DNA from: Vicinamibacteria bacterium
Lineage (GTDB): Bacteria; Acidobacteriota; Vicinamibacteria; Marinacidobacterales; Marinacidobacteraceae
Length of the DNA: 64,000 nt
Assembly: GCA_964291235.2 (NCBI GenBank)
Contig: OZ219816.1
Span: 512,001-576,000, forward strand
Direction of reading: 5' to 3'
Part shown: positions 1,995 through 57,972 of the stretch, in pieces
How positions within the stretch are numbered: the stretch's first letter is position 1
How the letters are laid out: each line of letters opens with the position of its first letter
The notes under the pieces: generated by a model
Seen by the model: only the letters and a program-made list of their open reading frames with translations
The model's database searches: none
Told to the model about the DNA's origin: nothing
Program-made: the position numbers and the translations under genes

Positions 1995-2020
1995 GTCCGG
2001 GGGGAAAGTGTGAAAGGGGG
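1995..2020 (-). repeat. Terminal fragment of the ~230-bp structured repeat, containing the attL core TGAAAGGGGG (2011-2020)
   Basis: GTCCGGGGGGAAAGTGTGAAAGGGGG matches the reverse complement of the repeat end at ~62414-62440 (G-run one base shorter). The rest of this copy is at 57963-58169. Confidence 0.8.
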
Positions 2021-2186
2021 TCCGCCACTGTAGCACCCGTAAACCATTGACTTCTCTGTGTTTACGGGAAACGATCCACTGCTCTGGCCCCCGGCACGGC
2101 CCCCCGCGCGGATGGCGTCTTGCGGGCAGTCTTAAGCCTGTGCGGGAACACCGGCGCACTCAACGAGCGTGTCGGCAGGGCCAAGC
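2021..2186 (+). promoter_or_regulatory. attL arm: inverted repeat CCCGTAAAC/GTTTACGGG, IHF-like site, and GGCCCCC direct repeats 12 bp apart
   Basis: TAAACCATTGAC at 2040-2051 resembles the IHF consensus YAANNNNTTGATW. GGCCCCC at 2086 and 2098. Homologous arm at 49763-49935. Confidence 0.6.
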
Positions 2187-2199
2187 TCTCTGCATCCGC

Positions 2200-2630
2200 G
2201 CCCAGCGACCGCGACCGAGAGCTGGCGAGTGCATCCGTGCGGGCGGCGTATCCTCGGTAGGTGTCTGGTCCCCACGATCTCCACGTCCATCAACTCTTGC
2301 CCCTTCTGTTGAGAGAGCACTTCGTCCTGAGCCATCTTTTCAGCTACGGCGGCCCGAAGAATCGTGTTGTCTCGGTACGCACTCCGCTTTCCAGTGATCT
2401 CGCCACGCTCGATCATTTCGCGCCGGATACTCTCGATACTGAGGTCTTTGTCATCGTCGAAGGCATCCCTCGTCAACCAGAGGTAGAGCGGCCCAAGAAC
2501 GCGGGAGTAGAGGAACATGGACCCGAACACGATAAGTTCCGCAATCTCTATCGGAACGTTCGTGGTGGCGAACAAGGCGCCTCCAGCCCATAATGCCGCC
2601 GCCCGGATCACGCGTCCGAGTCCACCGTCA
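2200..2630 (-). pseudogene. Hypothetical membrane-protein fragment
   Basis: Hydrophobic stretch (AAALWAGGALF...ELIVFGSMFLYSRVLGPLYLWL) followed by a charged helix within ORF 2132..2851. No clear start. Confidence 0.3.
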
Positions 2631-2771
2631 CGGTGACGATATCCACGTTGTGATACTTCTGGTGTCGGACCGTGCGGGCGTAGTGTTGCAGGAGACGAAG
2701 CGAAACGTCCTCGTCTCCTGGAATTCCTGCCGGGCCGACCAGGAGCGCCAGCCGATCCGACGCTGACCCGG

Positions 2772-2935
2772 ATGCTGCACCTGGCGGTGGTTGTGGACGC
2801 CTGCAGCCGGCGGGTGGTGGGTTGGGCGATGGCGCTGCATGCGCGGGCCACGCTGGTTCTGGAGGCCTTGGAGATGGCGCTCGAGCAACGGGGGCCCCAG
2901 GACGTGATCCACCACTCCGATCAGGGGTGTCAAGC
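2772..2935 (+). pseudogene. IS3-family transposase (rve) fragment
   Basis: LAVVVDACSRRVVGWAM...LEALEMAL...VIHHSDQGCQ. Confidence 0.85.
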
Positions 2936-3013
2936 CAGGTTCAAGTGTTCGTCGCAACGCTACTCTCGGGGTAACCGAATGTAGGAGTCAAGGGCTTCGG
3001 CAGGCGTCTTCCA
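2936..3013 (-). pseudogene. IS30-like transposase C-terminal remnant and end
   Basis: The minus strand reads WKTPAEALD..., then GTTGCGACGAACACTTGAACC, resembling IS30-family right ends. Confidence 0.5.
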
Positions 3014-3105
3014 ACTTCGAACAACAACTGCGAGAGCTGGAATGAACCGGCACTCCCACTGGTCCGATCAACTGGGGCAAGCTCAGAGGCCGGCGCTCTT
3101 GGAGT

Positions 3106-3950
3106 TGCCTTGGAGTCGCCTCAGTAAAACGGACACCTCACATTGCCTCAGAGGAGGTCCGCGATGGCAAACATAGGCCGCCAGTATCCGGCGGAGTATC
3201 GATGACGTCTGGTAGAGCTGGTCCGAGCGGGTCGGAGCCCGGAGGATCTGGCGCGCGAGTATGAGGCGAGCACGCGAGCGATTCGGCGTTGGGTTGCGGC
3301 GGCGGACCAGAAGGAGGGCCGCCGGGAGGACGGCTGGACGCGCGAGGAGCGGGTGGGGTTGCGGCGGCTGCATCAGGAGAACCGGCAGTTGAAGCGGGAG
3401 GTATTGTTCCTAAGAAAGCGGCGGCCTGGTTCGCTCGGGAGACCGAGTCGGGAGATATCGACTGATACGAGCGAGCCAGGCCGAGGTGGGAGTGAGCGCG
3501 ATGGCGCGCTTGCTGGGGGTATCGCGGAGCGGGTATTACGCGTGGCGCGATCGGGAGCCGAGCCGCCATGCGCAGGCGGACGAGCGGCTGAAGTCGGCCA
3601 TCAGGGCGGCGCACGCGGCGAGCCGTGGGACGTATGGCGCGCCGCAGATCCGGGCGGAGTTGGCGTCGGAGGGGCTTTGGGTGAGCCGGCGTCGGGTGGC
3701 GCGGCTGATGCGGGAGACGGGGATCTGCGGGGTGAGTCGCCGGCGCCGGGTGCGGACCACGATCCAGGACGTCGCGAGGTGTCCGGCGCCGGACCTGGTG
3801 AACCGGAACCTCGAGGCCGAGGCTCCGGATCAGTTGTGGGTGGCGGATATCACCTGCGTTCCGACGGCGACCCAGTGGTGGTATCTGGCGGTGGTGCTGG
3901 ACGCGTGCAGTCGGCGGGTAGTGGCCTGGGCGATGGCGCTGCACCTACGA
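3106..3950 (+). mobile_element. Degenerate IS3-family element (broken orfA, truncated orfB)
   Basis: Left-end-like TGGAGTCGCCTCAGTAAAACGGACA. orfA remnant ...LRRLHQENRQLKREVLFLRK. orfB ARLLGVSRSGYYAW..SRGTYGAPQI..PDLVNRN..PDQLWVADIT..WYLAVVLDACSRRVVAW, truncated. Confidence 0.85.
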
Positions 3951-3958
3951 ATGGACGC

Positions 3959-4430
3959 TCACCCACCAGCCATGCGCATCGGCCGGTGACGGCGTTGCTT
4001 CTTCTTGGTCGCAGCGGTCAGTGGCACACGAATCCGCTCGTAGAGCGCAAAGAGGCGCTCGACCCGCTCCCGTTCTGAGGAGAACTTGCGCGGTCTGTAG
4101 AGGCGGTCTACGGCACGGTCGAGCGCATGGTGGGCGCGGTGCCAATTCGGCGGCATAAGGTCCGGGTCATAAAGGTCAATGAGGGTGGCGTCTGGGTGGG
4201 CAACGCGGGCACCGAGTACGGCCTGGGCGAGGGGCTCCAGAACTGACAGGTCTATGGCGCGGCCGGGTGGCGGGAATGTGCTGTAGACAAGCCCGCTCGA
4301 ATACCGGTAGCGACTCTCCAATCGGCCTCCGACCGCCCGCATCCACGCCATGTGTATCGCGGAGGTAAGGAGAGCGAAACAGGCCGAGCGTGCCGTCCTC
4401 GACGACCAACAGCTTGTTGCTGGGAATCAG
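3959..4430 (-). pseudogene. MmeI-like (type IIL) restriction-modification enzyme, C-terminal fragment
   Basis: AWMRAVGGRLESRYRYS..LVYSTFP..AQAVLGARVAHPDATLIDLYDPDLMP..AHHALDRAVDRLY..ERVERLFALYE is the characteristic MmeI/YeeA C-terminus. The methyltransferase part is absent. Confidence 0.85.
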
Positions 4431-4587
4431 GCCGAACGCTTACAACGGTTGGTAACCGTTCGCGTCTGCCAGTGCCGCATTGGCTAGGAAACCGCACACC
4501 AGACGCGCCAGCGCACCGCGAATGGGGTGGCGCTCCCTCCGTGGGATAATCCGCAGTAGAATTCACTGCTCCAGCGAGAGGAGAACC

Positions 4588-5295
4588 GTGGCCGACTATG
4601 TCATCCGACTGACTGGAATCAGCAAGATGTTCTACACGGATGAGGTCGAAACCCACGCCCTAGCAGACGTGAACCTAAGCCTCGGTGTCGGGGATTACGT
4701 GGCGATCGCGGGGCCCTCCGGGTGCGGGAAATCCACCCTGCTTTCGATTCTCGGCCTGCTGGATTCGCCCAACGCGGGGGAGTAACTCCTGAACGGCCGC
4801 TCGGTGGCGAACCTGGACCTGACGGAGCGAGCCCGGATCCGTAACCGCGAAGTCGGATTCATCTTCCAGGCTTTCAACCTCATCGGTGATCTGACCGTGT
4901 ACGAGAATGTCGAGTTGCCGCTGGTCTACCGAGGGATGCCCGGGGCCGAGAGGAAACGGCGGACGGACGAAGCACTGGAGCGCGTCGGAATGTCATATCG
5001 CCGCAAGCATTTCCCTTCACAGCTCTCCGGAGGGCAGCAACAGCGGGTGGCGGTGGCCCGGGCGGTGGTCGGGGAGCCTTCCATCGTGCTCGCTGACGAA
5101 CCCACGGGCAACCTCGACTCTACGAACGGCACCGAGGTGATGGACATGCTGAACTCGCTGCATCAGGGAGGGGCGACCATCTGTATGGTCACGCACGACC
5201 CGCGTTACGCCGGCCGCGCGGAACGGACCGTCCACCTGTTCGACGGGCATGTCGTCGAGGCGGCGGAAAACGAAGAGACGGTGGCGGCCACCTAA
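4588..5295 (+). pseudogene. MacB/LolD-type ABC transporter ATP-binding protein with an in-frame TAA at 4783-4785
   Basis: Walker [37 protein letters not shown]. The two ORF-track pieces share one frame, separated by TAA where Tyr is expected (GE*LLNG). Confidence 0.9.
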
Positions 5296-5657
5296 CCACC
5301 GTCGGCGATGTATGGAAGTTCGCAATCTCCGCATCAGGCAAGCACCTCCCCGTCGTCGGACCGGGGTGGTGGACACCGTCCTCGCCGACGGTATTACTTT
5401 GGGCGGTTCAACAACCCACGTTCGCCCTACGGTCGAGGCCGATCGGTCCCGGCTCTGTGATCCGCGCCGATCTGACCGCGTCTGCGGGAACGTTGTGGCC
5501 GGGGTGGCGTTAGGCCGCGCGGAGGACACAGGCGGATGAGCAAGGACGGGAAGCCTGCCGACGGCTCGCCGCTCATCGAGCGGAGGTGGAAGAGGATGGT
5601 GAGTGAAGCGGTACACGGTGCGGGTGACCGTAGGAGATCCCCCGAGGCCCGGGACCG

Positions 5658-6428
5658 ATGTCGTTCATGACGCGCCGGCGCGCCATCTTCCTGGCCGTCC
5701 TGACGGTGCTGGTTGTCGTTGTCGCGTTCGCCGTGAACCGGTTCGGGCGCATCGCGCCGGTCGAGGTCGAGGTGAACGTGTCCGATGAGCCGGCGCCGAA
5801 ACCGAAAGCGGGTCCCGTGTCGGTTTCAGTGATGCGCGTTCCATTGGAAAACAGCCCCGACGAGGATGCGGAACCGGCGGACGAGACTCCAGCGGGCCGA
5901 CTGGTTGCGGCGGCTCGGGCCGGTGACGCCGCGAGGGTCGGGGAGCTTCTGGGCGAGGGGGCGCCTGCCGACGCGCGGAGCGGCGGGTTCCCCGCCATCC
6001 ACCGGGCGGCCGAGGCCAATTCGGTGGCGCTGCTGGAGATGCTTGTCGCTGCGGGCGCCGACCTGGAGGCGGCAGACCGTTCAGGTCACACGGCGCTCGC
6101 GCGCGCGGCCCTGTTTGGCCGTGCTGCCGCGGTCGCCTTCCTGTTGGAGTCGGGGGCGGACCCCAACGCCCATACGGAGCCAAACAATCAGACGCCGCTC
6201 CTCGCCCTCCTCTTTGGATGGTCGCTCGGCCAGTCTCCAAATCCGGCCGGGATCGAGGCGAATGAGGAAGAACGGCTGTCCGCGGCCCGCGCGCTCATGG
6301 CCGCGGGCGCGGACCCTCAGCTTGCTCCCGAACTGCTATCGCCAGCGATGATGGCGGAGAGCATCGGAGGCGAGATCCGCTCCTTGCTCCTGGGCGGCGC
6401 AACCGATCCGCCGCCGCACCCGCGCTGA
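5658..6428 (+). CDS. Membrane-anchored/secreted ankyrin-repeat protein
   Basis: N-terminal TM helix. Repeats GFPAIHRAAEANSVALLEMLVAAGADLEAAD, GHTALARAALFGRAAAVAFLLESGADPNA, QTPLLAL. Confidence 0.85.
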   Translation: MSFMTRRRAIFLAVLTVLVVVVAFAVNRFGRIAPVEVEVNVSDEPAPKPKAGPVSVSVMRVPLENSPDEDAEPADETPAGRLVAAARAGDAARVGELLGEGAPADARSGGFPAIHRAAEANSVALLEMLVAAGADLEAADRSGHTALARAALFGRAAAVAFLLESGADPNAHTEPNNQTPLLALLFGWSLGQSPNPAGIEANEEERLSAARALMAAGADPQLAPELLSPAMMAESIGGEIRSLLLGGATDPPPHPR

Positions 6429-14928: not shown

Positions 14929-17900
14929 ATGAAGATGACTCTTTGGGTCTTGGGGTTCCTGATGGCACCCTCGCTCATCGCTGCCCAGGATGGCGGCATA
15001 TCGGGCACGGTGACGGACTTTGGCGGCGGAGCGCTGCCCGGGGTGACGGTCGAGGTGTCCGGTCCGGCACTGGCCGGCCCGCAGGTAGCGGTGACCGACC
15101 GCCGCGGAGCGTTCGCGCTGGCGGAGTTGCCTCCCGGCGACTACGTCGTCACCTTCGCCCTCGCCGGATTCGAGCAACTGGAGCGCGAGGTGGAGCTGGC
15201 CGCGGGGGCCACCGCGACGGTTGACGCGGAACTACAGCTCGGCGGGCTCTTCGAGGAAGTCACCGTGTCGGTGACCGGCACCGCCATCGAGGCGCCCGCC
15301 ATCAACATGCCGCACGCCGTGACGGTGGTCAGCCGCGAGACCCTGGAGCAGCAGGGAAGCACGCAGCTCGTGGATCTCTTCCGGAACCTGACGGTCAGCC
15401 ACGGCGTGGTCGGCGAACGGAACAGTTGGTACAACTCGAACCAGCCGGCGACCCTCACCGAGAACGTGGCCAACGTCAACCTGCGGGGCCTGGGCGCGTC
15501 GCGGACCCTCGTGCTCATCAACGGCCGGCGCCAGGTGCCGGTCCCGGCGCGCCTGATCGGCGGGCGCTTCGTGGACGTGAACACGATCCCCTCGATCGCC
15601 GTAGGCCGGCTCGAGGTGCTGAAGGAGGGCGCGTCGGCGACCTACGGTTCGGACGCGGTCGGCGGGGTCGCCAACTTCGTGACCCGCAGCGACTTCCGGG
15701 GCTTCGAGATCAACGTCGCGCACGACTACTTCGACGGCGGGGGCGACACCTCCGTCGCCGGCATCTGGGGATTCGACATGGGTTCCTCCAGCGCCGTCTT
15801 CTCCATGGAGCGGGTCGGCCGCCAGGAGCTGCAGATGTCGGAGCGGCCCTGGACGCTCGACCGCCTCAGCGAGTACCCCCCGGGGACCCGCGGGGGCTGG
15901 TCGAGCCTGGGCAACCCCGGGAACCTTCGCGGTGGGCGCGCCGGCGCCGTGGACCGCCGATGTCTTCGATCCCCGCTGCACCGATTTCGGCGGTATCGAC
16001 GAAGGCTGGACCTGCCGGTTCCGCTACGCCCCGTACGACAACCTGATTGACGAGTAGCAACAGACCCGCGCGTTCGCCGAGATCAACGGTCCCCTGGGCG
16101 AAGGGATCGAGTACCACATCGAGGGACTGTGGGCCGACGCCGTCATCCCGAACTGGTACACGACTCCGTCGTATCCACCGTTCCCGCTCACCAGCACGAC
16201 GGTCATGGAGGTCGGGGCCGACCATCCGGGCCGCCAGGCGTTTTGCGCCGTTTACGGCGGGGACCCGAAGGCCGATCCGAACGGCGCCTGCCTGGAAGGC
16301 TCCCCCTGGTACCTCAACGGCCGCCCGTACGGGAACTCTGGGCCCGGGCGCCGGCTGCGCCGCGAGTCGCGCACCCAGCGCGTCGCGGGTTCGCTGCACG
16401 GCGAGTTCATGGCGGGCGAACGGGACCTCCACTGGGACGCCGGCGTCAGCTACTCGCGGGCGCAGGGCAACCTGAACCTGCCGGCGGTCTATACGGACCG
16501 GATCTTCCGCGCCTTCCGCGGCTTCGGCGGCCCCAACTGCGGTGTGGGGGTGCAGGCGGACCACACCTCACCGGCGGGCATGACGCTCGGGCCGCTGGGC
16601 GGCGCGGTGGCCGGCCAGGGTCCCTGCATGTACTACAACCCCTTCAGCAACGCGGTCCAGTTCTCCGATCAGCCGGGATCGATCCTCGAGAACACCGCCA
16701 ACCCGGATTACGTCGCCGCACTGGCCAACTCCGAGGACCTGCGGCTGTGGCTCAACGAGGAAGTGGACCTGTTCAGCACCTCGGACATGTTCGTGGCCGA
16801 TCTCACGCTGAGCGGCAACCTCGTCGAGGATGTGGCCGACTTCGCCATCGGGTACCAGTACCGCCGGATGGAGGCCAATGGCAACCCGAACGACCCCGGA
16901 GACGTGACCGTCAACCCCTGTCAGGTGGCGGGCGACACGACCTGCGCGCCGGGGAGGCGGTTCGGGCCCTACCTGTTCACGAACGTCCACCGGCCCTACG
17001 ACGCGAGCCAGCAGGTGCAGCGGATGTTCGGTGAGCTGGCGGTCAAGGTCGGCTCCCGTCTCGACACCCAACTCGCCGCCAACTACGAGTTCTACAACGT
17101 CGCCGGCAGCCGGGTGGACAGCTTCGACCCGAAGATCGGCTGGCGCTTCCAGGCGGCCGAGAACCAGGACTTCTCGCTGTCCTTCCGCGGCTCGGCGCAG
17201 ACGACCTTCAGGACTCCCTCGCTCGACGACCTGAACACCAGCCCGCTGACGACCCTCGAATGGATCTCGGAGACCGGCGCCTACCAGGCGGTGGACCGCT
17301 TCGGGCGCACGGATCTGCTCCCGGAGCGGGCGTTCACCTACAACGCCGGCGTCGTCCTGTTCCTCGCCGGGGGCGTGGAAGCGACGGTGGACTACTGGAC
17401 CTACGACTTCGAGAACGTGATCGGGTCCATGCCCTACGACTCGATCTCGAGCCTCTACGCGGGCGGCGACGAGGCCACCCGGAACGCGGTGGCGCCGTTC
17501 ATCATCTGTCCCGGCGGCCGGGCCTCGGAACTGGCGATGGCGGACCGCTGCGACGCGCAGAACCTCCAGCGCATCCAGATCGACCTGGTGAACTGGCCGG
17601 GACTCACCACCTCGGGGATCGACACCCACCTGGCGGCCCGCACCGACGCGGGGCCGGGACAGCTCTCGCTCAGTTGGGATTCCACCTACACGCTCCGCTA
17701 CGACACCAGGGAGCTGCTGCTCGAGGGCACCGACCTGGTGCTCCGCGAGGAAGAGGAGGCCGCCGGTTTCCTGAACTTCGCGCACCCGATCGCGGTGCCC
17801 CTGCCCCGCTGGAAGAGCCGCTGGTCGGGCGCCTACGCCTGGGATCAATTCCGGCTGGCGAGCTACGTGAACTACATCTCGTCCTACGAGGATCAGGGGG

Positions 17901-18121
17901 ACGACGAGATCGTGCCCCTCATCGAGCCGTTCCTCACCTGGGACGTGAGCCTCCTGTGGCGCGGTCCCGGCGGGGTGAACCTCACGGTCTACGGGATGAA
18001 CCTGACCGGGCGGGTTCCCCCGTGGGTCAACATCGAACAGGCCTTCGACGGCTTCACCCACGACGCGAAGGGACGCCGGATCAAGGCGGCGCTGAGCTGG
18101 CGGTTCGGGAGCTGGCGGTAA
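14929..18121 (+). pseudogene. TonB-dependent receptor, disrupted by a frameshift at ~15920 and an in-frame TAG at 16055-16057
   Basis: Carboxypeptidase-regulatory N-domain (ISGTVTD..GALPGVTV), plug (VNLRGLGASRTLVLINGRR, LEVLKEGASATYGSDAVGGVANF), barrel ending LSWRF. Confidence 0.9.
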
Positions 18122-37031: not shown

Positions 37032-37040
37032 CGACGGGGA

Positions 37041-44814: not shown

Positions 44815-45132
44815 ATGGGCCAGCCGCCAGTCTAAACCGTCAGCATACGACTGAACAACGTGCCGAGTTTACACATCCAGTGTCGGTGGTGCGTCAGTTT
44901 AGCTGACGCACCACCCGCGAAGGCGTTCCTCAATCCAGGCCGCGTATTCCCCGCGAAGAGGGGCAGAGCTTCAGAAATCCGTCTCTCCGAGATCGAACCC
45001 TCGCCACGGCATCCCGCTTGCGCCGCCCGATGTTTACAAACGCGACGCAGAGATGTCAAATGCAGACGTAGCAACCTCGCAGCCCGGCTAGGGCGGCTCT
45101 GCCCTCTTCGCTCTCCCAACCAGGTACGTGGC

Positions 45133-45222
45133 TCACTGCTCCATGAGCGTCCAGCGCCGCTCGAACAGATCCGTCCGCCGGTAGGCCGCCTCGATGCTTG
45201 TCTTGTGGTCACATGAGTTAGG
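45133..45222 (-). pseudogene. Tyrosine integrase 3' remnant (subfamily B)
   Basis: IEAAYRRTDLFERRWTLMEQ*. Confidence 0.8.
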
Positions 45223-46019: not shown

Positions 46020-46220
46020 CCTAGAACTCCAAGAGAGCCCGCCGCCGCTCGAACAGATCCGTGCTGCGTTAGGCCGCATCGGTGGCGTTCGTGCTCATGT
46101 GCGCCAGCGCCAGTTTACAGACCTCGCGCGGCGCGCCGGAACACTCTGCCGCCCAATCCCGAAAGCTCGAACGGAACCCGTGCGGGACCGCCCCGATCCC
46201 CAGATCTCGGACCAGCTTGG
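46020..46220 (-). pseudogene. Tyrosine integrase 3' remnant (subfamily B)
   Basis: GIGAVPHGFRSSFRDWAAECSGAPREVCKLALAH..AA*RSTDLFERRRAL. Confidence 0.8.
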
Positions 46221-47839: not shown

Positions 47840-48035
47840 TCAAGAAGGCGTCTCGGCAAGGAACGCAGCCCACTGCTCCATGAGCGCCCGCCGCCGCGCG
47901 AACAGGTCTGTCCGCCGATAGACGGCCTCGATGGCGTTCGCGTGCATGTGGGCCAGCGCCAGCTCGCACCCCTCCCGCGGGGCGTCGGACCACTCCGCCG
48001 CCCAGTCACGGAAGCTCGACCGGAACCCGTTTCAC
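47840..48035 (-). pseudogene. Tyrosine integrase 3' remnant (subfamily B)
   Basis: GFRSSFRDWAAEWSDAPREGCELALAH..AIEAVYRRTDLFARRRALMEQWAAFL. Confidence 0.85.
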
Positions 48036-48635: not shown

Positions 48636-48726
48636 GCCGAATCCCGGGAGGGCGTGCGTTCCACGCTTGGGTTGAGTCCGTGCGATCATCGAGTCTGAAC
48701 GCGCGGACGACGCCTCGGGGTCAGCC

Positions 48727-49764
48727 TCACGCCCCGACGTATTCCCCCCAAGCGTCCATCACCGGCCTGCGCTCATCGAACAGATCGGTCCGCCGATAAG
48801 CGCCTTCGGCGCCCTGGACGGCATGGGCCAGCGCGGCCTCCGCCAGCATCGGCGCGTTCCCCTGCTCGGCGCTCCAATCGCTGAACGTCGAGCGGAACCC
48901 GTGAACCGTCGCACGCTCGCCCACGCCCGCCGACCACAGCGCGTTCGTCAGCGCCATGTCCTTCAACTCCCGATCCCCCGAATGCCCGGGGAACACCAGT
49001 TCGCACCCCTTCCGGCTCCGCAACCGGCGGGCGCGCTCCAGGACCGCGACCGCCTCCGGACTCAGGGGAACGCGATGCTCCTTCCCGGCCTTCATACGCT
49101 CGCCGGGAAGCGTCCAGGTGCGGTTCTCCAAATCGACCTCCGACCAGCGCGCCTCCCGGGCCTCGCCGCTGCCCGCCGCCGTCAGGATCAGGAACCGGAG
49201 GCAGAGGCGGACCGCCGCCCGCGATCGCGACCCCTCCACCTTCGCCAGCAGTTCGCGCACCTCGGCGTGCGGCAGGGCGCGATGGCTCTTCGGACGGCGC
49301 CGCCGTTGCGGGAGGGCTCCCTCGATCGCCTCGCCCGCCACGTTCCGCTCGACGAACTCCCGCGCCTGCGCCCAGCCCAGCACGGTACGGATCTGCTGGC
49401 GCACCCGCTGGGCGGTGGTCGGCTTCCGATTCCACAGGTCGTCCTGGAAGAGCACCCGGAGCACGTCATCCCCGCGGATGGCGTCCACGCGCATCGGTCC
49501 GAGCGCGGGGAAGACATACCGCGCAAGCGTCCTCTCCCACACCCGGGCGTGCCCGTCGCCCCGCCAGTTCGCCCTCCGCTCCGCCAGCGTCCGCTCCGCC
49601 GCCTCCGAAAACGTGGGGGCGGCCCCGCGGCGGCGCTCCGCGATGGGGTCCTTCCCTTCCCACAGGGCGCGGCGGTTCTGGAGCGCGGCCATGCGGGCCT
49701 CGGCGAGCGGCACCAGGTCGAGGGGTCCGATGGTGATGTCCCGGCGGACCCCGTTGACAGTCAA
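48727..49764 (-). pseudogene. P4-type tyrosine integrase, 5'-truncated, catalytic Arg changed to Gly
   Basis: Near-identical to 56631-57779 up to ...GTCAAG, then diverges. TAAGSGE versus TAARSGE. Confidence 0.9.
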
Positions 49765-49935
49765 GGGGGTCCGCGCCGGTCGCACTCGTGACCCATTGAC
49801 TCCCTTGCGTTTACGGAGATCGATCCGCTGCGCCGGCCCCCGCCGCGGCCCCCCGCGCGGATGGGGGCTTACGGGGAGTTTTCAGCCTGCGCGGGAACTC
49901 TGACGCACTCTACGGGTAGGCGGACAGGGCCGAGC
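49763..49935 (+). repeat. Second attL-like arm, homologous to 2014-2186
   Basis: AAGGGGGTCCGC..CCATTGACT..GTTTACGG..CGATCC..GGCCCCC..GGCCCCCCGCGCGGATGG..AGCCTG.GCGGGAAC..CGCACTC..CAGGGCC.AGC occur colinearly in both arms. Confidence 0.85.
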
Positions 49936-50143
49936 ATTCAGCACCCGCGTCCAACGCCCACGACCGAGAGCTGGCCCCGGCTCACGTGAACACGAAGCGC
50001 ATCAAAGGTGGCTCTTCGGCGGGCGGACCAGGCCGCCACCGGCTTCACGGAGGCCCTCCACCTCCCCAACGCCGGGGGAGGCCAATGAGGTCCTGACCGG
50101 CCTGGGTGAGGTGTCGGCTGTGCAGTGCAGGACGGTCGCGCCC

Positions 50144-50968
50144 TCAATCGAGTCCCATCGCGCTGACCTTACGGAACACGCGGTCTGGAAGAAGCCGCTT
50201 CAGGACGCCAATGATCTTGCCGTCCCGGGTCGGATGGTAGCGGACGGGCTTCCGCTTCATGTGCACCAGCCGGTACACGGACGACGCCACCTCGACCGGG
50301 TCGACTGCGTTCGCCTGGAACTTCTTCGTAGCCGTTTCGATCGCGGGGATCATCCGGCGCATATAGGCGTCGTAGTCGCCGATCGGCACTTCCCGCGAGT
50401 TCGTCATGTGTGCGGCGAACTCCGTCTTCATCCCGCCCACCTCAAACACCGTCGCATCGATCCCCTGGCTCGCAAGCTCCCACTTGACCGTCTCGGTGAA
50501 CCCGGTCATCGCGAACTTGCTCGCGCAATAGGCGCTCTGCAGCGGAATGCCGAACAGCCCGGCCAGCGACGTGACGTTGACGATGAACCCCGAGCGCTGG
50601 GCGCGCATCACCGGCAGCACCGCACGCATCACCTCCAAGTGGCCGAAGAAGTTCGTCTCAAAGGCTCGGCGGAAGCTCTCGTCCGCGGTCTCCTCAAATG
50701 CCACCAGCCCGCCATAGCCGACATTGTTGAACAGCACGTCGATCCGGCCGAACGTCGCCACCGTCTCCTCGACTGCCGCCCGAACCGTCTCCGGGCGGGT
50801 AACATCCAGCTCGAAGACGCCGACGTTGTGCATGTCGGAAAACACGCCACCCTTGGTGGTATCACGCATCGTGGCGGCGACATTCCAGCCGTCGCGCCCT
50901 GCGAAATACTCGGCGACGGCCCTGCCGAGCCCTGCCGAACCGCCCGTCACGAGAATGGTCTTGCTCAT
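50144..50968 (-). CDS. Short-chain dehydrogenase/reductase
   Basis: MSKTILVTGGSAGLG, NNVG, YCASK. Confidence 0.95.
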   Translation of the reverse strand: MSKTILVTGGSAGLGRAVAEYFAGRDGWNVAATMRDTTKGGVFSDMHNVGVFELDVTRPETVRAAVEETVATFGRIDVLFNNVGYGGLVAFEETADESFRRAFETNFFGHLEVMRAVLPVMRAQRSGFIVNVTSLAGLFGIPLQSAYCASKFAMTGFTETVKWELASQGIDATVFEVGGMKTEFAAHMTNSREVPIGDYDAYMRRMIPAIETATKKFQANAVDPVEVASSVYRLVHMKRKPVRYHPTRDGKIIGVLKRLLPDRVFRKVSAMGLD

Positions 50969-51200
50969 CCGCCTTTGTCCCCCACTTCGGGCCGTGTTCG
51001 AGTTCATTGAAGGATGGTGCAACAACTCGGCGGGGTCACTCCGCGCTGCGCGCGGACTCCACACCGCCCATAGGAGAGTCGCATCGCTGGACCCGAGTGC
51101 CCTCGATCTGCGAGAACTGCCTGGACCGCATCAATCAGCTCACGTCACCATCGGAACGGCCTAAAGAAGGCGCAGTCCGGCGCGATGATATGGCCGGGAA

Positions 51201-52161
51201 TCAGTTGCGGACTCGGTCCCCGACCTGGATGCCGGCCCCGATGGTCACGGTGCCGACGGACGAAACGTCGTCCACTTCGTCAATGCGTACCTGACCCAGA
51301 TCCTCCGTGACCTCACGGAGGACCGCGCCGGTCGCCGGATCGGTGACTGTTCGCGTAACCCGCATGACCCTCAGCGTGTCGCCGACCTCAACGCCCGCCG
51401 CCGAACCCACGTTGAGGATCAGGGTGGCGCCATCCACATCGGCCACCAGGCCGTTCACCGGGACGACCGGGGCGACCCGCGCGGTGATCCGGTTGGAGGA
51501 CCGAACGAGCTGTCCCGACAACTGGTTGATGGCGGCCTCGGTCGCTTCGCCGAGGATGGTTTCGCGATAGCCGCTGCTGTTCATGGAGATCCGAGCCCAG
51601 CCGAGCGGCGTGCCTCCTCCGGCCGCGAGCAGCATCCCGGAGCGGTCCGAGCTGCCTTCACCCTCGCCGGCCGCCAGGATTTCGGCGGTGTCCGTGTTCA
51701 CCATCCGCGCGGTCAACTGGACCGCCGCCTTGCCGCTCTGCCGACCGACCCGGTCCACGAGTCCTCGCGTCAGCCGCCTCAGGCCACCGACGCTCCGGCC
51801 TTCCCGTTCCGTGCCGAACTGCGTGACGCTGCCGATGATGATGGCGTCCACACCCAGAATCCTGCCGATCGCCGCCGCCGACATCGGGTCGGCCCGGTCG
51901 CTGTTGGAAAAGTTCTGTTCGCGCAGGATCGCGTCGAGTCGGGTCCGTTCGATCACGCTATAGGTGCCGTCCCTCACCAGCTCTTCGACCAGCATGTCCG
52001 CGATCCCCCCCCCCAATGTCCCACTCTCCCTCCCACCATCTCGAGATGCTCGCGAACTCGAAATCGAGCACCGCCACCCGACTCCGGTTCTGAGCGAGGC
52101 TCACTGCGGAACCGAGCGTGAGCGCCAACAGGATGCATCCAATCGTCTTCGTTCGCTTCAT
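51201..52161 (-). pseudogene. CsgG/HfaB-family exported protein, frameshifted in a G10 tract (52005-52014)
   Basis: Signal peptide and RVAVLDF are in one frame; GIADMLV..L...YSVIER..LDAILREQ..IGRILGVDAIIIGSVTQFG is in another. G9 restores the frame. Confidence 0.85.
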
Positions 52162-52369
52162 CAGGCTACCTCCGTGGGCGCCTCCGACCGCGTGCCGAAT
52201 CTGCGCGAGCCCGAGCGGGCCGCGCCCGCGCACCGAACGCGCCGGAGCCAACATTGAGGATACGACAAGTCCGCAGGCAATGCACACGGCGCTCCGGCCG
52301 CGGGCGGCGGGGCGCCACGTCAGTCCCGGATCGTATCCCTCCCGCACACCCCGCCGGGCATGAACGGCG

Positions 52370-52854
52370 GCCCGGAGCGCCCGTTCGGAGCGGCGAGGTT
52401 GGCGGGGCGCGATGGAACGAGATGGACCTTGCGGGACGGGAATGGCGCATTCCGCCCGAGCAGATGAAGACGGGACGGTAGCACCGGGTTCCGCTGTCCT
52501 GGAGGGCGCTGACGGTCCTGCAGGAGTCTCAGGCGCTCGCGGACGGCTCCGGGGTGGTGTTTCCCCTCGGCCCGCGGCGGGCCGCTCCACGAGGGGGCGA
52601 TCTCGAAGCTGGTCCGGAGGCTGAAGATCGGTGCGGTGCCGCACGGGTTCCGTTCGAGCTTCCGTGACTGGGCGGCGGAGTGCTCGGATGCGCCGCGTGA
52701 AGTGTGCGAACTGGCGCTGGCTCACGTGAACATCAACGCCGTCGAGGCGGCCTGCCGGCGCACGGATCTGTTCGAGCGACGGCGGGCGCTCATGGAACAA
52801 TGGGCCGCGTTCCTGGCTGGGACCGAAGGCGCGGAACCGAGGCTCGCCGGATGA
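52370..52854 (+). pseudogene. Tyrosine integrase C-terminal half (subfamily B), degenerate
   Basis: ARWNEMDL..REWRIP.EQMKTGR*HRVPLS...AVPHGFRSSFRDWAAE...ACRRTDLFERRRALMEQWA. Confidence 0.85.
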
Positions 52855-52949
52855 CCACAGCAGCGCCTCCGTGTGCCCTGCTGACGACTGTCATCAGGGC
52901 CACTTCGGCCGCGGGAACAGCCTTCGCGCCGGAAGGCCACTTGGGGTTA

Positions 52950-53113
52950 GGCCAGCCTACACAGTGTGAAACACTGGGCTCTGGCGAGGGGATGCTGCGC
53001 CCCCCTTCGAACCCCCGGCCTCTCGCGCCGCTGCCGTGGCAACGGCCGGACGGGGGCTCCGCCCCCGGACCCCCGCGGCGGTGCGCTCCTGGCAGAGCGG
53101 CGCACCGTTGTGG
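52950..53113 (-). repeat. ~165-bp repeat (oriT-like), inverted partner of 56186-56348
   Basis: Its reverse complement aligns with 56186-56348 along the whole length. Contains GGGGGCGGAGCCCCC and CAGTGTTTCACACTG hairpins. Confidence 0.85.
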
Positions 53114-53426
53114 TCCCCGCCCACCTCACACCGGCGGACCAGCTCGCCTCCGGCGAGGCGGAGGCCCTCCGGCTCCCCAACATCGAGGAGCCAGCCAACG
53201 AGGTCGAGAGCGGCGTCGTGGCCCCTTCCGCGGCCGGCGGGCATTACGGCGCTGCCGCGGGGACATAGGCGGCCCAAATTGCCGCGAATCGCGCGAGCCC
53301 GGAGCGATCGGAGCTTGCTATCCGACCGTCTGCGTGCCGCGTTTCACTCTCCTTCCCTCCGCCAGGTCAAGGAAGCCGACATTTGCCCCTTGAAAGATGT
53401 GCTCCGGCGTGTTGAACGTAATTGAC

Positions 53427-53825
53427 ATGAGACTACGACCCATCCACCTGACCGTGATTCCCCTGGCCGCGGTCGCAATTGCGCTGGCCTGTGACACTCC
53501 GGTGATCCCTCCGGCGGCTGGCCCCACGGGGGATGCTCCTACTGCTCCCGCTCCGGCACCAAACCACGCATCGCTGGAACTCGTCGGACCGGCCGGCCAG
53601 TCCGTGGCCGGCCATTCCGCACTCGGCCTCAAGGAGCACGTCGCTCTTCACGTTGGGCAGGCTCGTCGCATCGAGGAGGACTCCGACGCGCGCCTGCTCG
53701 CCGCGTTTCGCGGTGCCGGCGCCTCCGAGGAACAGCTCAAGCGGTGGCGCCTCGAAATGGAGGAGAGCCGGAGTCGGGACGCCAAGCACCTGCAGGCGCT
53801 GCTGACGGACATCCTGGAGCGTTGA
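53427..53825 (+). CDS. Hypothetical lipoprotein
   Basis: Lipoprotein signal ending IALAC, Pro-rich linker, helical C-terminus. Confidence 0.65.
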   Translation: MRLRPIHLTVIPLAAVAIALACDTPVIPPAAGPTGDAPTAPAPAPNHASLELVGPAGQSVAGHSALGLKEHVALHVGQARRIEEDSDARLLAAFRGAGASEEQLKRWRLEMEESRSRDAKHLQALLTDILER

Positions 53826-53871
53826 GGTGCCAAGTCCCGTGTTTCGAGGATCGACGGCGAAGGCAAGACAG

Positions 53872-54141
53872 ATGAACGCCGGTTCCCGACTTCTCCTCGC
53901 CATCACCTTCGTCATCATGCACGCGGTCATCGGGCTCGCCGGCGCGACCTGCTGCCTTGACCGCGTGCTGGAGAGGTACGACTACTGCATCGACAAGGCG
54001 GAATACGATGCCATCGTTGAAGCTCAGCGGTGCGGAATTACTGACAACGCGTGTCGGCAAAGAGCGCTCGACAGGCTAAACGAGCGGAAGGCGGAGTGCC
54101 GCCAGATTCGAGATCGAGAGATGAGAGAATGCAACATCTAG
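53872..54141 (+). CDS. Small secreted cysteine-rich protein 1
   Basis: Signal peptide ..LAGA|TCC; seven Cys; paralog immediately downstream. Confidence 0.75.
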   Translation: MNAGSRLLLAITFVIMHAVIGLAGATCCLDRVLERYDYCIDKAEYDAIVEAQRCGITDNACRQRALDRLNERKAECRQIRDREMRECNI

Positions 54142-54464
54142 TCCGTTTGCCCGATCGGCGTCGCGCGACGACGCCTCTTGCTTCGAGAGGTCTCGGCGTC
54201 TTCATCGTTTTCACCTTTGCCTTCATGCACGCTGTGGTCGTCTCTGCCGGTGCCACCTGTTGCATTGATGAGGCAATCGAGAGGGCCGACGCCTGCGAAG
54301 ATCAGGCGCAGGCGGACTCCCTTGCGGAGGCCGCGCGCTGCAAGCGGCGCATCCTTCCGCGCCGCATCGAACAATGCCTCCTGGAAGTGCACGCCCGGCA
54401 CCAGGAACGGAAGGACGAGTGCCGCCGGATTCGGGACGAGGAGATCTCCCAGTGCAATATCTAG
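54129..54464 (+). CDS. Small secreted cysteine-rich protein 2 (start uncertain: ATG 54129 or TTG 54147)
   Basis: Shares MHAV...AGATCC...ERK.ECR.IRD.E...CNI* with protein 1. Confidence 0.7.
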   Translation: MQHLVRLPDRRRATTPLASRGLGVFIVFTFAFMHAVVVSAGATCCIDEAIERADACEDQAQADSLAEAARCKRRILPRRIEQCLLEVHARHQERKDECRRIRDEEISQCNI

Positions 54465-54499
54465 GGTCACAACGGAAGGTTGCAGCGTTTAGCGGCGGG

Positions 54500-54895
54500 A
54501 TGGCTGTCGGCGTCTTCGCCTTCGTGCTCTTCGAAGGCGCTTCGGAAATCAGTGGAGTCCTTCCCGACGCCGTTGTTGCGGCGATTACGATGTTTGCGGG
54601 CACTCTGGTCGGCACCCTGGTTTGGTCGTCGATCGGCGGGTGGCTGAAGACACGGCCAGAGCCCCCCGTCCTCGTGAGCGCCGGCATCGGAGCCGTTCTC
54701 GCCGTTGGTTTGGCCGGCGCTTTTGCCATCGTCGTCCACAACTACTGGGGCGTTCTGTTAGGTGAACCGCTCGGGATTCTCCACGACGTTGGCTTTTGGC
54801 TCGCGATTTCCCTGTGGAACTCCATCGGCTACGGGTTGGCCGTCAGCCCGGCCGTGCGCGCCGAGACCACCTCTGTCTCGAAGCAGCCGAGCTGA
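54500..54895 (+). CDS. Four-TM hypothetical membrane protein (start uncertain)
   Basis: Four hydrophobic segments within ORF 54374..54895. Confidence 0.55.
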   Translation: MAVGVFAFVLFEGASEISGVLPDAVVAAITMFAGTLVGTLVWSSIGGWLKTRPEPPVLVSAGIGAVLAVGLAGAFAIVVHNYWGVLLGEPLGILHDVGFWLAISLWNSIGYGLAVSPAVRAETTSVSKQPS

Positions 54896-54970
54896 GTGCA
54901 TTCGGGCACAAAACATCCTTGTCTGATCCAGGGAAGGCGTTCCGGCCGGACGCTCCACGAAGAGGCTGTC

Positions 54971-55990
54971 ATGGCGACTCCGAACTCTGAGTGGGAACAC
55001 CCGGACCTCGCGTATGACGCGGAGGAACCCGGAGAAGAGCGTCTCTCGTCCGAAGCACGCGCACCGAGCGAAACGGACGCGGAGGCGCACGGGCAAGCCG
55101 ATCTGGATTTGATAGCGCTCTACGTCCGGGACGGGCGCCGGCATCGCCAGTTCCGCGGGAGTGAGCCCCGGCGGTGCCGACGCGCCCCGCGACCGGACGG
55201 GGCAACCGATCCGGATGGCATTTGCGCCGCCCCCCGCAAACAGTTCAACGGCGAGTTCGGCCGTGAGCGGATGGTCGAGAGCAACCTGGGCCTCGTCGTC
55301 ACTATCGCGAAGAGCTACCGGAACCTCGGACTGCCACTCGGCGACCTCATCCAGGAGGGCAACCTCGGACTCCTGCACGCGGCCCGTCGGTTCGAACCGA
55401 AGCCGGGCCGCAGTTTCTGCGCCTACGCCGCTGGGTGGATTCGCCAGACGATCTGCCGGGCGCTCTCCCAACAGTCGAGGACGATTCGTATTCCCTTACG
55501 CCGCCTTGAGCTCCGGCGGCACGCCTGCGAGGTGGAGGCACACGAGGAACAACGGTCTGGCAACGCGTGTTGCACGGGGGATAGACGCCCGCCCCACACG
55601 ACCGAATACGCAGCTCGAGAGCTGGGAGTCAGCGTCGAGCAACTGCGCTCCACGATCGTTCTGGTATCCGACATCGAGTCGCTCGACACGTCCCCCGCTA
55701 CGAACGGCCTCCCGTGGGTTCTGTCGCTTCCGGATCCCGGGTCCCCGGATCCGTGCGAGACCGCGGCCGGTACCGAGCAGTGGCGGCGTCTGCGCGTCGC
55801 CCTCTCTCACTTGCCGGAGCGCCTCCGACACCTCCTGGAGATGCGATTCGGCCTTGCGGACGGCCAAGAATCCAGCCTTGCCGAAATCGGACGGGCCCTC
55901 CACGTCAGCACGGAGCGGGCGCGGCAATTGCAGCAGCAGGCGCTCGACCGCCTCCGCCGCGACCCCGGGCTCCGGGGACCGCGCGTCTGA
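54971..55990 (+). CDS. RpoD/RpoS-like sigma-70 factor
   Basis: Region 2 MVESNLGLVVTIAKSY..GLPLGDLIQEGNLGL..A..RF...WIRQ.I.RAL..QSRTIRIP; region 4 SLAEIGRALHVSTERARQLQQQAL. Confidence 0.9.
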   Translation: MATPNSEWEHPDLAYDAEEPGEERLSSEARAPSETDAEAHGQADLDLIALYVRDGRRHRQFRGSEPRRCRRAPRPDGATDPDGICAAPRKQFNGEFGRERMVESNLGLVVTIAKSYRNLGLPLGDLIQEGNLGLLHAARRFEPKPGRSFCAYAAGWIRQTICRALSQQSRTIRIPLRRLELRRHACEVEAHEEQRSGNACCTGDRRPPHTTEYAARELGVSVEQLRSTIVLVSDIESLDTSPATNGLPWVLSLPDPGSPDPCETAAGTEQWRRLRVALSHLPERLRHLLEMRFGLADGQESSLAEIGRALHVSTERARQLQQQALDRLRRDPGLRGPRV

Positions 55991-56185
55991 CTCGCAGCCG
56001 GTCGTACTTCGAGGACTCCCCGTGCAAGAAAGACAGCGGTATCGCCGGATTGTGTGCGGCGGAGTAGTCCGGCCCCGCTCCCAGTTGTTGCCGATCATGT
56101 GGTGGACCCGGAACGGGTTCGCCGGGTCGCGGTACACCGGGGTGATCAGAGGGGGCCCGGTCCGCCCGCGCGAGGCGGTCAGCAG

Positions 56186-56348
56186 CCACAACGGTGCGCC
56201 GCTCCGCCAGGAGCGTACCGGTGCGGGGATCCGGGGGCGGAGCCCCCGTCCGCCCGGTGCTCCCGCAGCGGCTCGAAGGGCCGGGGGTTCGAAGGGGGGC
56301 GCGGCACCCCCTCGCCAGTCCCAGTGTTTAACACTGGGTATGCTGGCC
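56186..56348 (+). repeat. ~165-bp repeat (oriT-like), inverted partner of 52950-53113
   Basis: CCACAACGGTGCGCCGCTC...GGGGGTTCGAAGGGGGGCGC...CCCAGTGTTTAACACTGGGTATGCTGGCC. Confidence 0.85.
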
Positions 56349-56630
56349 CTCGTGCATAAGCACGTTAGCCAGCCTCTGGGATGGGGACCATCCCGGGACC
56401 TCGACAGCGCCGATGGCTCCTCACCGAGAAGCTGGCAGCTCGACGCGGCACCTCACCGATCCCGAGCTGACGAACCGGCCTCGAGATCGCCCCGTCAAAC
56501 AGCGGGCCGGTCTGCGCCGAGAGGGAATGCCGTCTCCGAGCCGGTGGCGAACGCTCTCGGCTCGCGGAGCACCGCGAGCGCCGCTGTGGACACTGGTAGC
56601 CGGTGGTCCCCGTAGCCTCCGGGTCGGTGT

Positions 56631-57779
56631 TTACGCCCCGATGTATTCCCCCCAAGCGTCCATCACCGACCTTCGCTCGTCGAACAGGTCGGTCCGCCGA
56701 TACGCGCCTTCGACGCCCTGGACCGTATGGGCCAGCGCCGCCTCCGCCAGCATCGGCGCGTTCCCCCGCTCGGCGCTCCAGTCGCTGAACGTCGAGCGGA
56801 ACCCGTGAACCGTCGCACGCTCGCCCACGCCCGCCGCCCACAGCGCGTTCGTCAGCGCCATGTCCTTCAACGCCCGATCCCCCGAACGTCCGGGGAACAC
56901 CAGCTCGCACCCCTTCCGGCTCCGCAACCGGCGGGCGCGCTCCAGGACCGCCACCGCCTCCGGACTCAGGGGAACGCGGTGCTCCTTCCCGGCCTTCATG
57001 CGCTCGCCGGGAAGCGTCCAGGTGCGCCTGTCCACGTCGATCTCCGACCAGCGCGCGCCCCGCGCCTCGCCGCTGCGCGCCGCCGTCAGGATCAGGAACC
57101 GGAGGCAGAGGCGCACCGCCGCCCGCGACCGCGACCCCTCCACCTTCGCCAGCAGTTCGCGCACCTCGGCGTGCGGCAGGGCGCGATGGCTCCTCGGACG
57201 GCGCCGCCGCTTCGGGAGGGCTCCCTCGATCGCCTCGCCCGCCACGTTCCGCTCGACGAACTCCCGCGCCTGCGCCCAGCCCAGCACGGTACGGATCTGC
57301 TGGCGCACCCGCTGGGCGGTGGTCGGCTTCCGATTCCACAGGTCGTCCTGGAAGAGCACCCGGAGCACGTCATCCCCGCGGATCGCGTCCACGCGCATCG
57401 GTCCGAGCGCGGGGAAGACATACCGCGCCAGCGTCCGCTCCCACGCCCGCGCGTACCCGTCGCCCCGCCAGTTCGCCCGGCGCTCCGCCAGCGTCCGCTC
57501 CGCCGCCTCCGAAAACGTCGGGACCGCCCCGCGGCGGCGCTCGGCGATGGGGTCCTTCCCCTCCCACAGGGCGCGGCGGTTCTGGAGGGCGACCATGCGG
57601 GCCTCGGCGAGCGGCACCAGGTCGAAGGGTCCGATGGTGATGTCGCGGCGGACGCCGTTGACGGTCAAGCGCTGGACCCACACTTTGGTGGCCCGAATCC
57701 GCAGGTAGAGGCCGCCGCCGGCGCAGTAGCGCCCGGGTTCCTTGAGGGCCTTGGCTCTCGCCGCCGTCATGTTCGCCAT
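56631..57779 (-). CDS. P4-type tyrosine integrase with arm-DNA-binding domain (intact)
   Basis: PGRY..GGGLYLRI..WVQR; catalytic residues R (TAARSGE), K (MKAGKEH), HGFR, LAH, Y (GAYRR). Adjacent to attR. Confidence 0.95.
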   Translation of the reverse strand: MANMTAARAKALKEPGRYCAGGGLYLRIRATKVWVQRLTVNGVRRDITIGPFDLVPLAEARMVALQNRRALWEGKDPIAERRRGAVPTFSEAAERTLAERRANWRGDGYARAWERTLARYVFPALGPMRVDAIRGDDVLRVLFQDDLWNRKPTTAQRVRQQIRTVLGWAQAREFVERNVAGEAIEGALPKRRRRPRSHRALPHAEVRELLAKVEGSRSRAAVRLCLRFLILTAARSGEARGARWSEIDVDRRTWTLPGERMKAGKEHRVPLSPEAVAVLERARRLRSRKGCELVFPGRSGDRALKDMALTNALWAAGVGERATVHGFRSTFSDWSAERGNAPMLAEAALAHTVQGVEGAYRRTDLFDERRSVMDAWGEYIGA

Positions 57780-57801
57780 ATTGCCGCCTCCGAGGTGACG
57801 A

Positions 57802-57972
57802 GGCCCCCCTATTGGCCCTCGCGATCGGCGGGAAGTGTAGCGCTTCGGCAGGACGGAAGCGGGCGGCACGGGAATCGGTATCAGGCTCTAATCCATTGGT
57901 GTTCTTGCACTATAGGCCCGTATATGGCCTTCTGGGAACATGCAGGAGCCATTCACTATGGATGAAAGGGGG
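57802..57972 (+). promoter_or_regulatory. attR arm and core (TGAAAGGGGG, 57963-57972)
   Basis: GGCCC(C/T)C at 57802 and 57814 (12-bp period, as in the left arm), IHF-like TAATCCATTGG at 57889, core identical to 2011-2020. Confidence 0.65.

Follow-up and report, generated by a model that had tools for sequence, protein, structure and literature searches.

Background

Genomic islands usually integrate at transfer RNA (tRNA) or transfer-messenger RNA (tmRNA) genes, as the Islander report describes (PMC4383910), and in the descriptions drawn on here the tyrosine integrases of islands target tRNA/tmRNA genes or single protein genes. Being usually tied to one conserved gene, mostly a tRNA, such integrases have one or few sites per genome. 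Here we analyze a 64,000-nt stretch of DNA from a Vicinamibacteria bacterium (hereafter "the window"; contig OZ219816.1, positions 512,001 to 576,000), in which a 56-kb segment (2011-57972) carrying a P4-type tyrosine integrase at one end lies within a split copy of a dispersed, structured repeat. From comparison with related genomes, we consider it probable (about 0.8) that a clade of P4-type integrases inserts islands at a 10-bp core in a hairpin of this repeat.

Several described systems share parts of this arrangement. P4-type integrases of islands and of integrative and conjugative elements (ICEs) have, like the one here, a three-domain architecture, a position beside one attachment site, a short duplicated core and a tendency to tandem accretion. 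On the other hand, they target the 3' ends of genes, whereas the target here is a non-gene hairpin arm in a repeat of tens of copies, hence with many equivalent sites and several co-resident elements (seven junctions of the left-attachment-site (attL) type in one genome, G007). Repetitive extragenic palindromic (REP) elements are described as the insertion target of the insertion sequences (IS) ISPsy8, ISPa11, ISPpu9 and ISPpu10, members of IS3/IS110 (PMC1525189). These IS resemble the present case in having a multicopy extragenic palindromic repeat as their specific target, but they are small and encode DDE/DEDD transposases, while the window has an arm-binding tyrosine integrase, the islands measure 6-56 kb, and attL and right (attR) attachment sites share a duplicated 10-bp core. 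The Nf filamentous prophages of Neisseria are described as entering dRS3 repeats, which are present in hundreds of copies, at sites that vary between genomes (PMC7058167). The dRS3 target is a 20-bp unit outside a larger structured element and its occupants are filamentous phages, in contrast to the structured repeat and the islands seen here. The recombinase of the Nf prophages is a Piv/IS110-like transposase. A multicopy palindromic repeat as target is already known for IS and Nf prophages, with other kinds of recombinase.

Tyrosine recombinases acting on palindromic, hairpin-forming targets in many copies are represented by the integron integrase with attC and by CTX phage with XerCD. Both resemble the present case in the type of recombinase and in the multicopy hairpin-forming target; the present case differs in its arm-binding P4-type integrase, in a hairpin that is conserved in sequence and in that nothing shows a single-stranded substrate. 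Composite islands are described as tandem arrays of ICEs and cis-mobilizable elements (CIMEs) and as tandem integration of Salmonella genomic island 1 (SGI1) (PMC2297512, PMC8978831). As in those arrays, related elements lie head to tail in the window, the internal site is lost and the pair is locked; unlike in those arrays, the deletion that forms the internal junction reaches into the integrase gene. A search of full-text literature, with supplements and subscription journals outside it, returned no tyrosine integrase, island or ICE with its chromosomal attachment site (attB) in a multicopy repeat.

Results and discussion

A repeat copy is split at a 10-bp core

The window corresponds to C2:512001-576000 of the source genome (G000; 3.45 Mb in two contigs, C1 and C2). 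The motif TGAAAGGGGG occurs at 2011-2020 (the left copy of the core, on the attL side) and at 57963-57972 (the right copy, on the attR side), both on the plus strand, and these two copies form the edges of the segment 2011-57972, hereafter island 1. The motif is present seven times in the window versus 0.12 expected (0/100 shuffles reach seven), and each of the seven lies either at one of the two borders of the island or in a hairpin arm of a repeat copy. When the repeat was searched by blastn against the whole source genome, the split copy was recovered as two pieces, C2:513995-514020 (query 207-233) and C2:569963-570169 (query 8-216), whose overlap is exactly the 10-base core. The left piece contributes the 3' tail of the repeat, GTCCGGGGGGAAAGTG (16 bases; 1995-2010, minus strand), while the right piece contributes the rest, namely the loop, the other hairpin arm (57978-57987) and ~190 nt of body (57973-58169, minus strand; 85% identity over query 8-216). 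Two intact copies lie further right in the window, a long-form copy at 62208-62440 and a second one in tandem with it at 62462-62687, both on the plus strand and thus in the orientation opposite to that of the split copy.

The integrase gene lies at the right end of island 1 (56631-57782, minus strand; the reading frame is open over 56631-57869 and the likely ATG is at 57782), separated from the right core by an integrase-proximal arm of ~180 nt (P arm; 57783-57962, minus strand) whose position is conserved among loci. The protein matched three Pfam domains, all above cut-offs: PF13356 Arm-DNA-bind_3 (4.7e-14), PF22022 Phage_int_M (6.3e-19) and PF00589 Phage_integrase (5.8e-18). Its translation contains ..AARSGEA.., ..HGFRST.. 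and ..GAYRR.., in which ARSGE, HGFR and AY are the putative box I Arg, His-x-x-Arg and nucleophilic Tyr (expected ~35 residues after the His-x-x-Arg). A first-pass annotation of this DNA had placed TGAAAGGGGG at both ends of the segment, two repeat halves at its outer flanks and an intact integrase just inside its right junction; all three were borne out, the integrase being full-length.

The target repeat

The repeat is ~140-230 nt long, structured and intergenic. In the source genome, which holds ~40 copies, it produced 49 blastn matches, including 29 full cores. The 29 aligned cores share a hairpin CCGGCGC..GCGCCGG, a longer helix that encloses a GC hairpin, and a terminal hairpin TGTGAAAGGGGGG-loop-CCCCCCTTTCACA followed by CTTTCCCCCC. 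Over 37 predicted pairs, 97.9% of the alignment cells were paired, and compensatory changes were found in 14 pairs, nearly all of them in the body helices; the terminal hairpin, on the other hand, is conserved in sequence. The 151-nt core of the copy at 62208-62440 folded at -48.6 kcal/mol (z = -4.2). Matches were present in all 15 genomes of the genus searched versus 2/12 other genomes of the family. With its many dispersed copies and conserved secondary structure, the repeat is similar to REP elements and miniature inverted-repeat transposable elements (MITEs). An Rfam search of 57800-63000 with E up to 1 assigned it to no family (the best match, Clostridiales-2, scored 21.9 bits versus a gathering threshold of 58.6; E = 0.089), and a search of G000 for REP-associated tyrosine transposases (RAYTs) gave one partial Y1_Tnp match (C1:16598-16834; 33 bits), away from the repeat copies.

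Further repeat families were encountered, so these genomes carry several. One, of ~200 nt and far more abundant, is present at 3013-3230 of L040 (G002:C172) and at over 60 places in G000, and a short repeat, GGGAACGCCGATCTCCAGATCGGCA, is found at 62709-62733 of the window.

A second island and its empty site

At a second island of the source genome (island 2; C2:1672849-1681048, 8.2 kb), a different copy of the repeat is interrupted at the identical 10 bases. Pieces of the repeat surround it at C2:1672724-1672848 and C2:1681049-1681070 (blastn), CCCCCTTTCA, the core in its target hairpin, is present at both junctions, and island 2 shares homology with island 1 at both ends. Its integrase, of 412 residues, is 97% identical to that of the window. 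Read in the orientation of the repeat, both islands occupy the 3' hairpin arm, with the integrase end toward the loop.

The flanks of island 2 are adjacent in 10/14 same-genus genomes. In G003, an intact repeat (body ~82% identical) lies between the orthologous flanks and no island is present; the attL-side alignment ends, and the attR-side alignment starts, on the same CCCCCTTTCA. Island 2 is, on this comparison, a base-precise insertion into a resident repeat with duplication of the 10-bp core.

Junctions across the genus

Integrases at least 90% identical to that of the window were found in 10 of the 15 remaining genus genomes and, among the 61 genomes searched, in no other genus. In all 20 loci fetched from other genomes, an exact CCCCCTTTCA lies 181-183 nt before the integrase start, and in 18 of them the order is repeat body, 5' arm, loop, CCCCCTTTCA and then P arm. 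Together with both loci of the source genome and a metagenome contig (L275), 21/23 junctions are therefore in the same arm. At L072 the core is preceded by the repeat tail, which places the element in the opposite hairpin arm. Two loci were left out of the tally (L089, with integrase residues 40-306 only, and L092, with the C-terminal part only) because their 5' side is missing. The 22 junctions with enough flank fell into 20 flank clusters, so they lie at different repeat copies. Moreover, L007 and L008 have near-identical P arms while their repeat bodies and flanks differ, so the repeat body is part of the chromosome rather than of the island.

On the attL side, an exact 23-mer consisting of repeat tail, core and TCCGC was found 19 times in 8/16 genus genomes, seven of these in G007. 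Complete elements with both junction types measure 12,671 bp (G014) and 8,227 bp (G001), and elements of ~9 kb and ~6 kb are implied in G010, from coordinates only. An exact 16-mer search for the other end of the opposite-arm element in G001 gave nothing nearby. From metagenome contigs came the full junction at L275, along with three integrase copies that are truncated or partial (L276, L277 and L279). A terminator-like hairpin, GGCAGCGAAC..GTTCGCTGCC, is a frequent companion of the repeat 3' tail: in the window it lies at 1967-1989, and it also stands beside the repeat tail at island 2 and at the attL junctions of G014, G001 and G010.

These findings sustain the earlier suggestion that a P4-type integrase uses a dispersed repeat as attB, with many landing sites per genome and with no tRNA involved: the evidence consists of island 2, where a repeat copy is split at the core beside a homologous integrase, of the intact repeat of G003, of the 21/23 junctions and of their 20 flank clusters.

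Sister clades at tRNA genes

The next-closest integrase clades (52-61% identity) are situated differently: in 12/12 fetched loci the immediate neighbor is tRNA-Ser (cga, gga, gct, tga) or tRNA-Ala, and both G000 paralogs of these clades also adjoin tRNA-Ser or tRNA-Ala, one of them marking a ~36-kb element between 12-bp repeats of a tRNA-Ser 3' end. ARAGORN found no tRNA within 3 kb of either repeat-targeting integrase of G000. A common though not obligatory trait of P4-type integrases, an attB toward the 3' end of a tRNA or tmRNA gene, is thus not seen here. Since the sister clades sit at tRNA-Ser or tRNA-Ala, the repeat-targeting clade represents a shift of specificity within an ordinary tRNA-targeting family. 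The comparisons show how the islands are built, what they target, how precisely they are inserted and that their sites are many, as well as this contrast with the tRNA-targeting clades.

Compared by eye, the 12-bp tRNA-Ser core CACCCTCTCCGC and CCCCCTTTCA are both pyrimidine-rich, a match too weak for use. Among viral contigs the best relative of the integrase was only 43% identical, so none of them could serve as a phage form or attP form of the element.

A third integrase clade (43-48% identical) is present in many copies per genome without an adjoining tRNA (G012 has up to 30 integrase matches, all clades together). In G000 its copies lie at C2:233155-234282, 761362-762486 and 1593152-1594288, two of the three adjoining a short hairpin, GCCGACCTCCGGTCGGC. 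This clade leaves isolated copies of its own 3' end, ~90-200 nt in length, four of which are inside island 1 (45114-45206, 46027-46206, 47849-48030 and 52621-52823). Its target may be a further repeat or else the 3' end of integrase genes in resident elements.

Proposed mechanism and alternatives

We propose that this integrase clade, found in one genus of uncultured Acidobacteriota, catalyzes the site-specific integration of islands of 6-13 kb and of at least one ICE-like element. The repeat, specific to the genus, would be targeted at the 10-bp core CCCCCTTTCA, the 3' arm of its terminal hairpin, and integration would duplicate the core and leave the integrase gene ~180 nt from it, on the loop-facing side. 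The hairpin is a near-perfect palindrome, so the other arm carries the core too, and it is used now and then. Both catalysis by this integrase and the position of strand exchange within the 10 bp are what we infer from the junctions.

Several points weigh against this proposal. The evidence for integration by this integrase is wholly comparative; no excised circle or attP junction was seen, and the metagenome contigs contained no circular form. At one locus (L080) the DNA before the core is island-like and not part of a repeat, which means that on occasion the 10-bp core can be enough by itself. Since every genome is metagenome-assembled and all belong to one genus, the junctions are only partly independent, and two flank pairs among them are orthologous. 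Gene coordinates come from open reading frames (ORFs) picked by GC content at third codon positions (GC3) without a gene caller; Pfam recognized no relaxase family among the 46 island ORFs searched (large ORFs without any Pfam family include 25718-27391 and 16205-18121) and no excisionase among the ORFs tested. Island 1 itself does not fit a simple insertion: the 20.9 kb to its left (flank A; C2:493115-514020), which includes rplY (ribosomal protein L25/CTC; 1008-1619, minus strand; Pfam Ribosomal_L25p and Ribosomal_TL5_C), continues into another gene, gene B, in 14/15 same-genus genomes. A second copy of flank A at the end of C1 (C1:1323458-1344352) is followed by an intact repeat and then by gene B. 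To the right of the island lies a TonB-dependent-receptor-like (TBDR) outer membrane protein gene (58210-61089, minus strand; Pfam CarboxypepD_reg and OMP_b-brl_4), beside which a repeat was found in 0/14 relatives.

The repeat half on the integrase side might be carried by the island, the true target being the short C-rich tail only; ~130 nt of repeat body are indeed present at every integrase-proximal junction, and the flanks diverge only beyond them. Such an origin is very improbable: it is contradicted by G003, in which the same flanking genes enclose an intact repeat and no island, and it fits poorly with the different repeat bodies joined to the near-identical islands L007 and L008 and with the ~40 island-free copies in G000. 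The idea that the association is a by-product, with repeats and islands piling up in variable regions and the 10-bp match arising by chance, can draw on the region by the TBDR gene, which in relatives is variable and rich in repeats and islands. However, a core at a constant 181-183 nt from the integrase start in 20/20 loci with the breakpoint at the same base, a chance expectation of 0.12 motifs per window and the base-precise empty site in G003 make its probability negligible.

The integrase could act on a folded hairpin, as a cruciform or as a conjugative single strand, in the way integron integrases act on attC, rather than on duplex DNA, and several features fit: the target is an arm of a perfect hairpin of 13-14 bp, both arms are usable (L072), one carrier is ICE-like, and ICEs transfer as single strands. 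Yet the hairpin is kept in sequence without covariation, as recognition of sequence would predict, the arm-binding domain is typical of duplex attP systems, 21/22 repeat-borne junctions are in the same arm, and one insertion is in non-hairpin DNA having the core, all of which renders a folded substrate unlikely. A broader version is doubtful as well: the integrase would read hairpin structure (in either arm, extruded or single-stranded) and, given ~40 equivalent genomic sites, the same enzyme would also recombine repeat copies with one another, in which case the window would be a join between places ~1.3 Mb apart and a third of the symbiont chromosome would have been excised or relocated.

Should the clade insert islands into the repeat as proposed, the move from a single gene to a multicopy repeat would allow several co-resident elements, neutral intergenic insertion and accretion, and, through sites that are scattered over the genome and are homologous or recombinogenic, could bring about large rearrangements. 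It would be a natural example of a shift in integrase specificity and a candidate multi-site landing-pad system, and it would connect selfish DNA of two kinds, the islands and the dispersed repeat on which they draw.

Flanks and history of island 1

An empty allele with the TBDR gene, the repeat and rplY contiguous, which the first-pass annotation had suggested looking for and whose absence from relatives it had named as a refutation, did not turn up, so for island 1 that refutation applies: with A joined to B in 14/15 relatives and no repeat by the TBDR gene in 14, the half-repeats of island 1 come from different repeat copies. One would derive from the rplY-side locus and the other from the TBDR-side locus. 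A repeat is present between A and B in two relatives (G008 and G011), and in 3/5 relatives read at the TBDR locus a gene resembling tetratricopeptide repeat (TPR) genes is located there, with no match in G000.

For the history that we infer from these flanks, we favor, at somewhat less than even odds, an element that sits at different repeat copies in different cells and an assembler that threaded both locations into one path. Such polymorphism of location, if true, would in its turn indicate that the element has lately moved from one repeat copy to another. A duplication of flank A is unlikely. A real recombination, integrase-mediated between two repeat-borne sites or homologous between two resident elements, is a possibility we hold only tentatively; island 1 would then truly bridge two ancestral loci, the rplY side having been joined to the TBDR side and a ~1.3-Mb arc (C1) having been excised or relocated. 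In its favor, the distance from A to the TBDR gene is 1.5-1.8 Mb, near the length of C1, in five relatives (G004, G008, G014, G001 and G009; same orientation in each), and the two ends of C2 are neighbors in 5/5 relatives, so that C2 behaves as a 2.1-Mb circle closed by A-island-TBDR. A weak hint in the same direction comes from three public runs, in which the flank A contig reads island-type TCCGC.. for 5-9 nt past the core and is covered about as deeply as the island contigs. Against it, C1 ends with A, an intact repeat and B, and the 6 kb of A nearest the repeat are clean on C1, so reads with the ancestral junction exist. Moreover, the arms of the cumulative GC skew, which is weak, are balanced (~1.68 and 1.71 Mb) only with C1 between A and the TBDR gene, C2 alone being without a skew minimum, and among the contigs listed for the public runs none spans the junction with 31 letters on each side of 2020/2021. 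The four runs, compared with window 1-6000, consist of short contigs that all break at the repeat, and none of the 24 loose ends listed, out of 165, is at 2020. Two viral-metagenome runs hold small shares, and one of them, X1, matched only short pieces of related sequence on flank A.

The C2 boundary of the duplicated stretch is contiguous in 5/5 relatives and hence merely marks the point where C1 stops. In relatives, the start of C1 corresponds to a zone that is variable, rich in islands and 55-175 kb away from the TBDR gene. Between the two copies of A there are 48 mismatches and 91 single-base gaps, confined to the 70% furthest from the repeat; the differences break long ORFs in the C1 copy only, and none fall in the 6 kb next to the repeat. 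This pattern is typical of a thinly covered contig end, though the A-repeat-B junction is clean.

The cumulative GC-skew curve of C2 reaches its minimum just where the island junction lies, and that of C1 has a separate minimum at ~940 kb; the positions flagged for skew were C2 ~500 kb and 1.34 Mb and C1 ~940 kb. In G002, the TBDR gene is 96% identical to that of the window (58200-60200) versus 79.5% for flank A (300-2010), a mosaic that suggests gene exchange or a mixed bin.

Composite structure of the 56-kb segment

The segment had been described in the first-pass annotation as a single 56-kb island, a description that has to be revised: two elements are fused head to tail, and the inner integrase lacks ~67 residues. 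By Pfam and comparison, element A (2021-49765) comprises an ICE-like part, cargo and, at its right end, the 5'-truncated integrase, while element B (49770-57962; 8.2 kb) carries the intact integrase and is ~95% identical to island 2 at both ends. The integrase-distal arm at the left end of element A (2021-2147, plus strand), which is conserved among elements, is 86% identical to the distal end of island 2, and a second copy of this arm lies at 49770-49896 (95.5% identical). The truncated integrase (48712-49765, minus strand; tblastn residues 68-412, 94% identity) is without ~67 N-terminal residues, and its Pfam arm-domain match begins at profile position 40. It joins the second distal arm at GTCAAGGGGGTCCGCG; the internal junction, where it abuts the distal arm of element B, holds a core remnant, AAGGGGG (49763-49769, plus strand; GTTGACAGTCAAGGGGGTCCGCG).

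The ICE-like element would have lost an attachment site and the first ~67 integrase codons by the deletion that fused it to the 8.2-kb element. This deletion took the inner attachment site, so only the outer site pair is left. Of the hallmarks of an ICE, element A has type IV secretion genes and a coupling protein; its integrase is truncated and its right site deleted, so it has no functional integrase and attachment sites of its own, and it could move only as part of the composite. A different deletion is present in L276 (1380-1540), where an integrase of the clade is truncated near residue 70 and joined to its own P arm.

The conjugation block of element A (21174-35404, minus strand throughout; Pfam) encodes a protein similar to type IV coupling proteins with TrwB and TraG-D_C domains (21174-23531), VirB8 (27405-28070), VirB6/TrbL (28083-29213), TrbI/VirB10 (30204-31484), a VirB4-like ATPase (32679-35330) and VirB3 (35114-35404). 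Pfam also identified, on the same strand, two ArdC-like genes (37041-38036 and 38082-39155) and a RepB-type primase (39403-40359). The cargo of element A includes an ankyrin-repeat protein (5658-6428), transporter parts and dehydrogenases. In element B, Pfam identified a short-chain dehydrogenase/reductase (SDR; 50144-51064), a CsgG-like protein (51201-52016) and a sigma-70-like protein (54896-55990); the sigma-70-like gene (regions 2 and 4) is a conserved cargo of the small elements and is also present at L001:4752-5771.

The conjugation block (window 19962-38065) is found twice more in G000, at C2:1316352-1335487 and C1:1216670-1235498, with 95-97% and ~80% identity. The C1 copy is within the ~36-kb element at tRNA-Ser(cga), which has CACCCTCTCCGC at C1:1206099-1206110 and C1:1242452-1242463. 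Near the left end of island 1, fragments of an IS3-like transposase (rve, HTH_21) lie at 2757-2933 and 3486-3989, and the 177-bp fragment recurs, ~90% identical, at four other places in G000.

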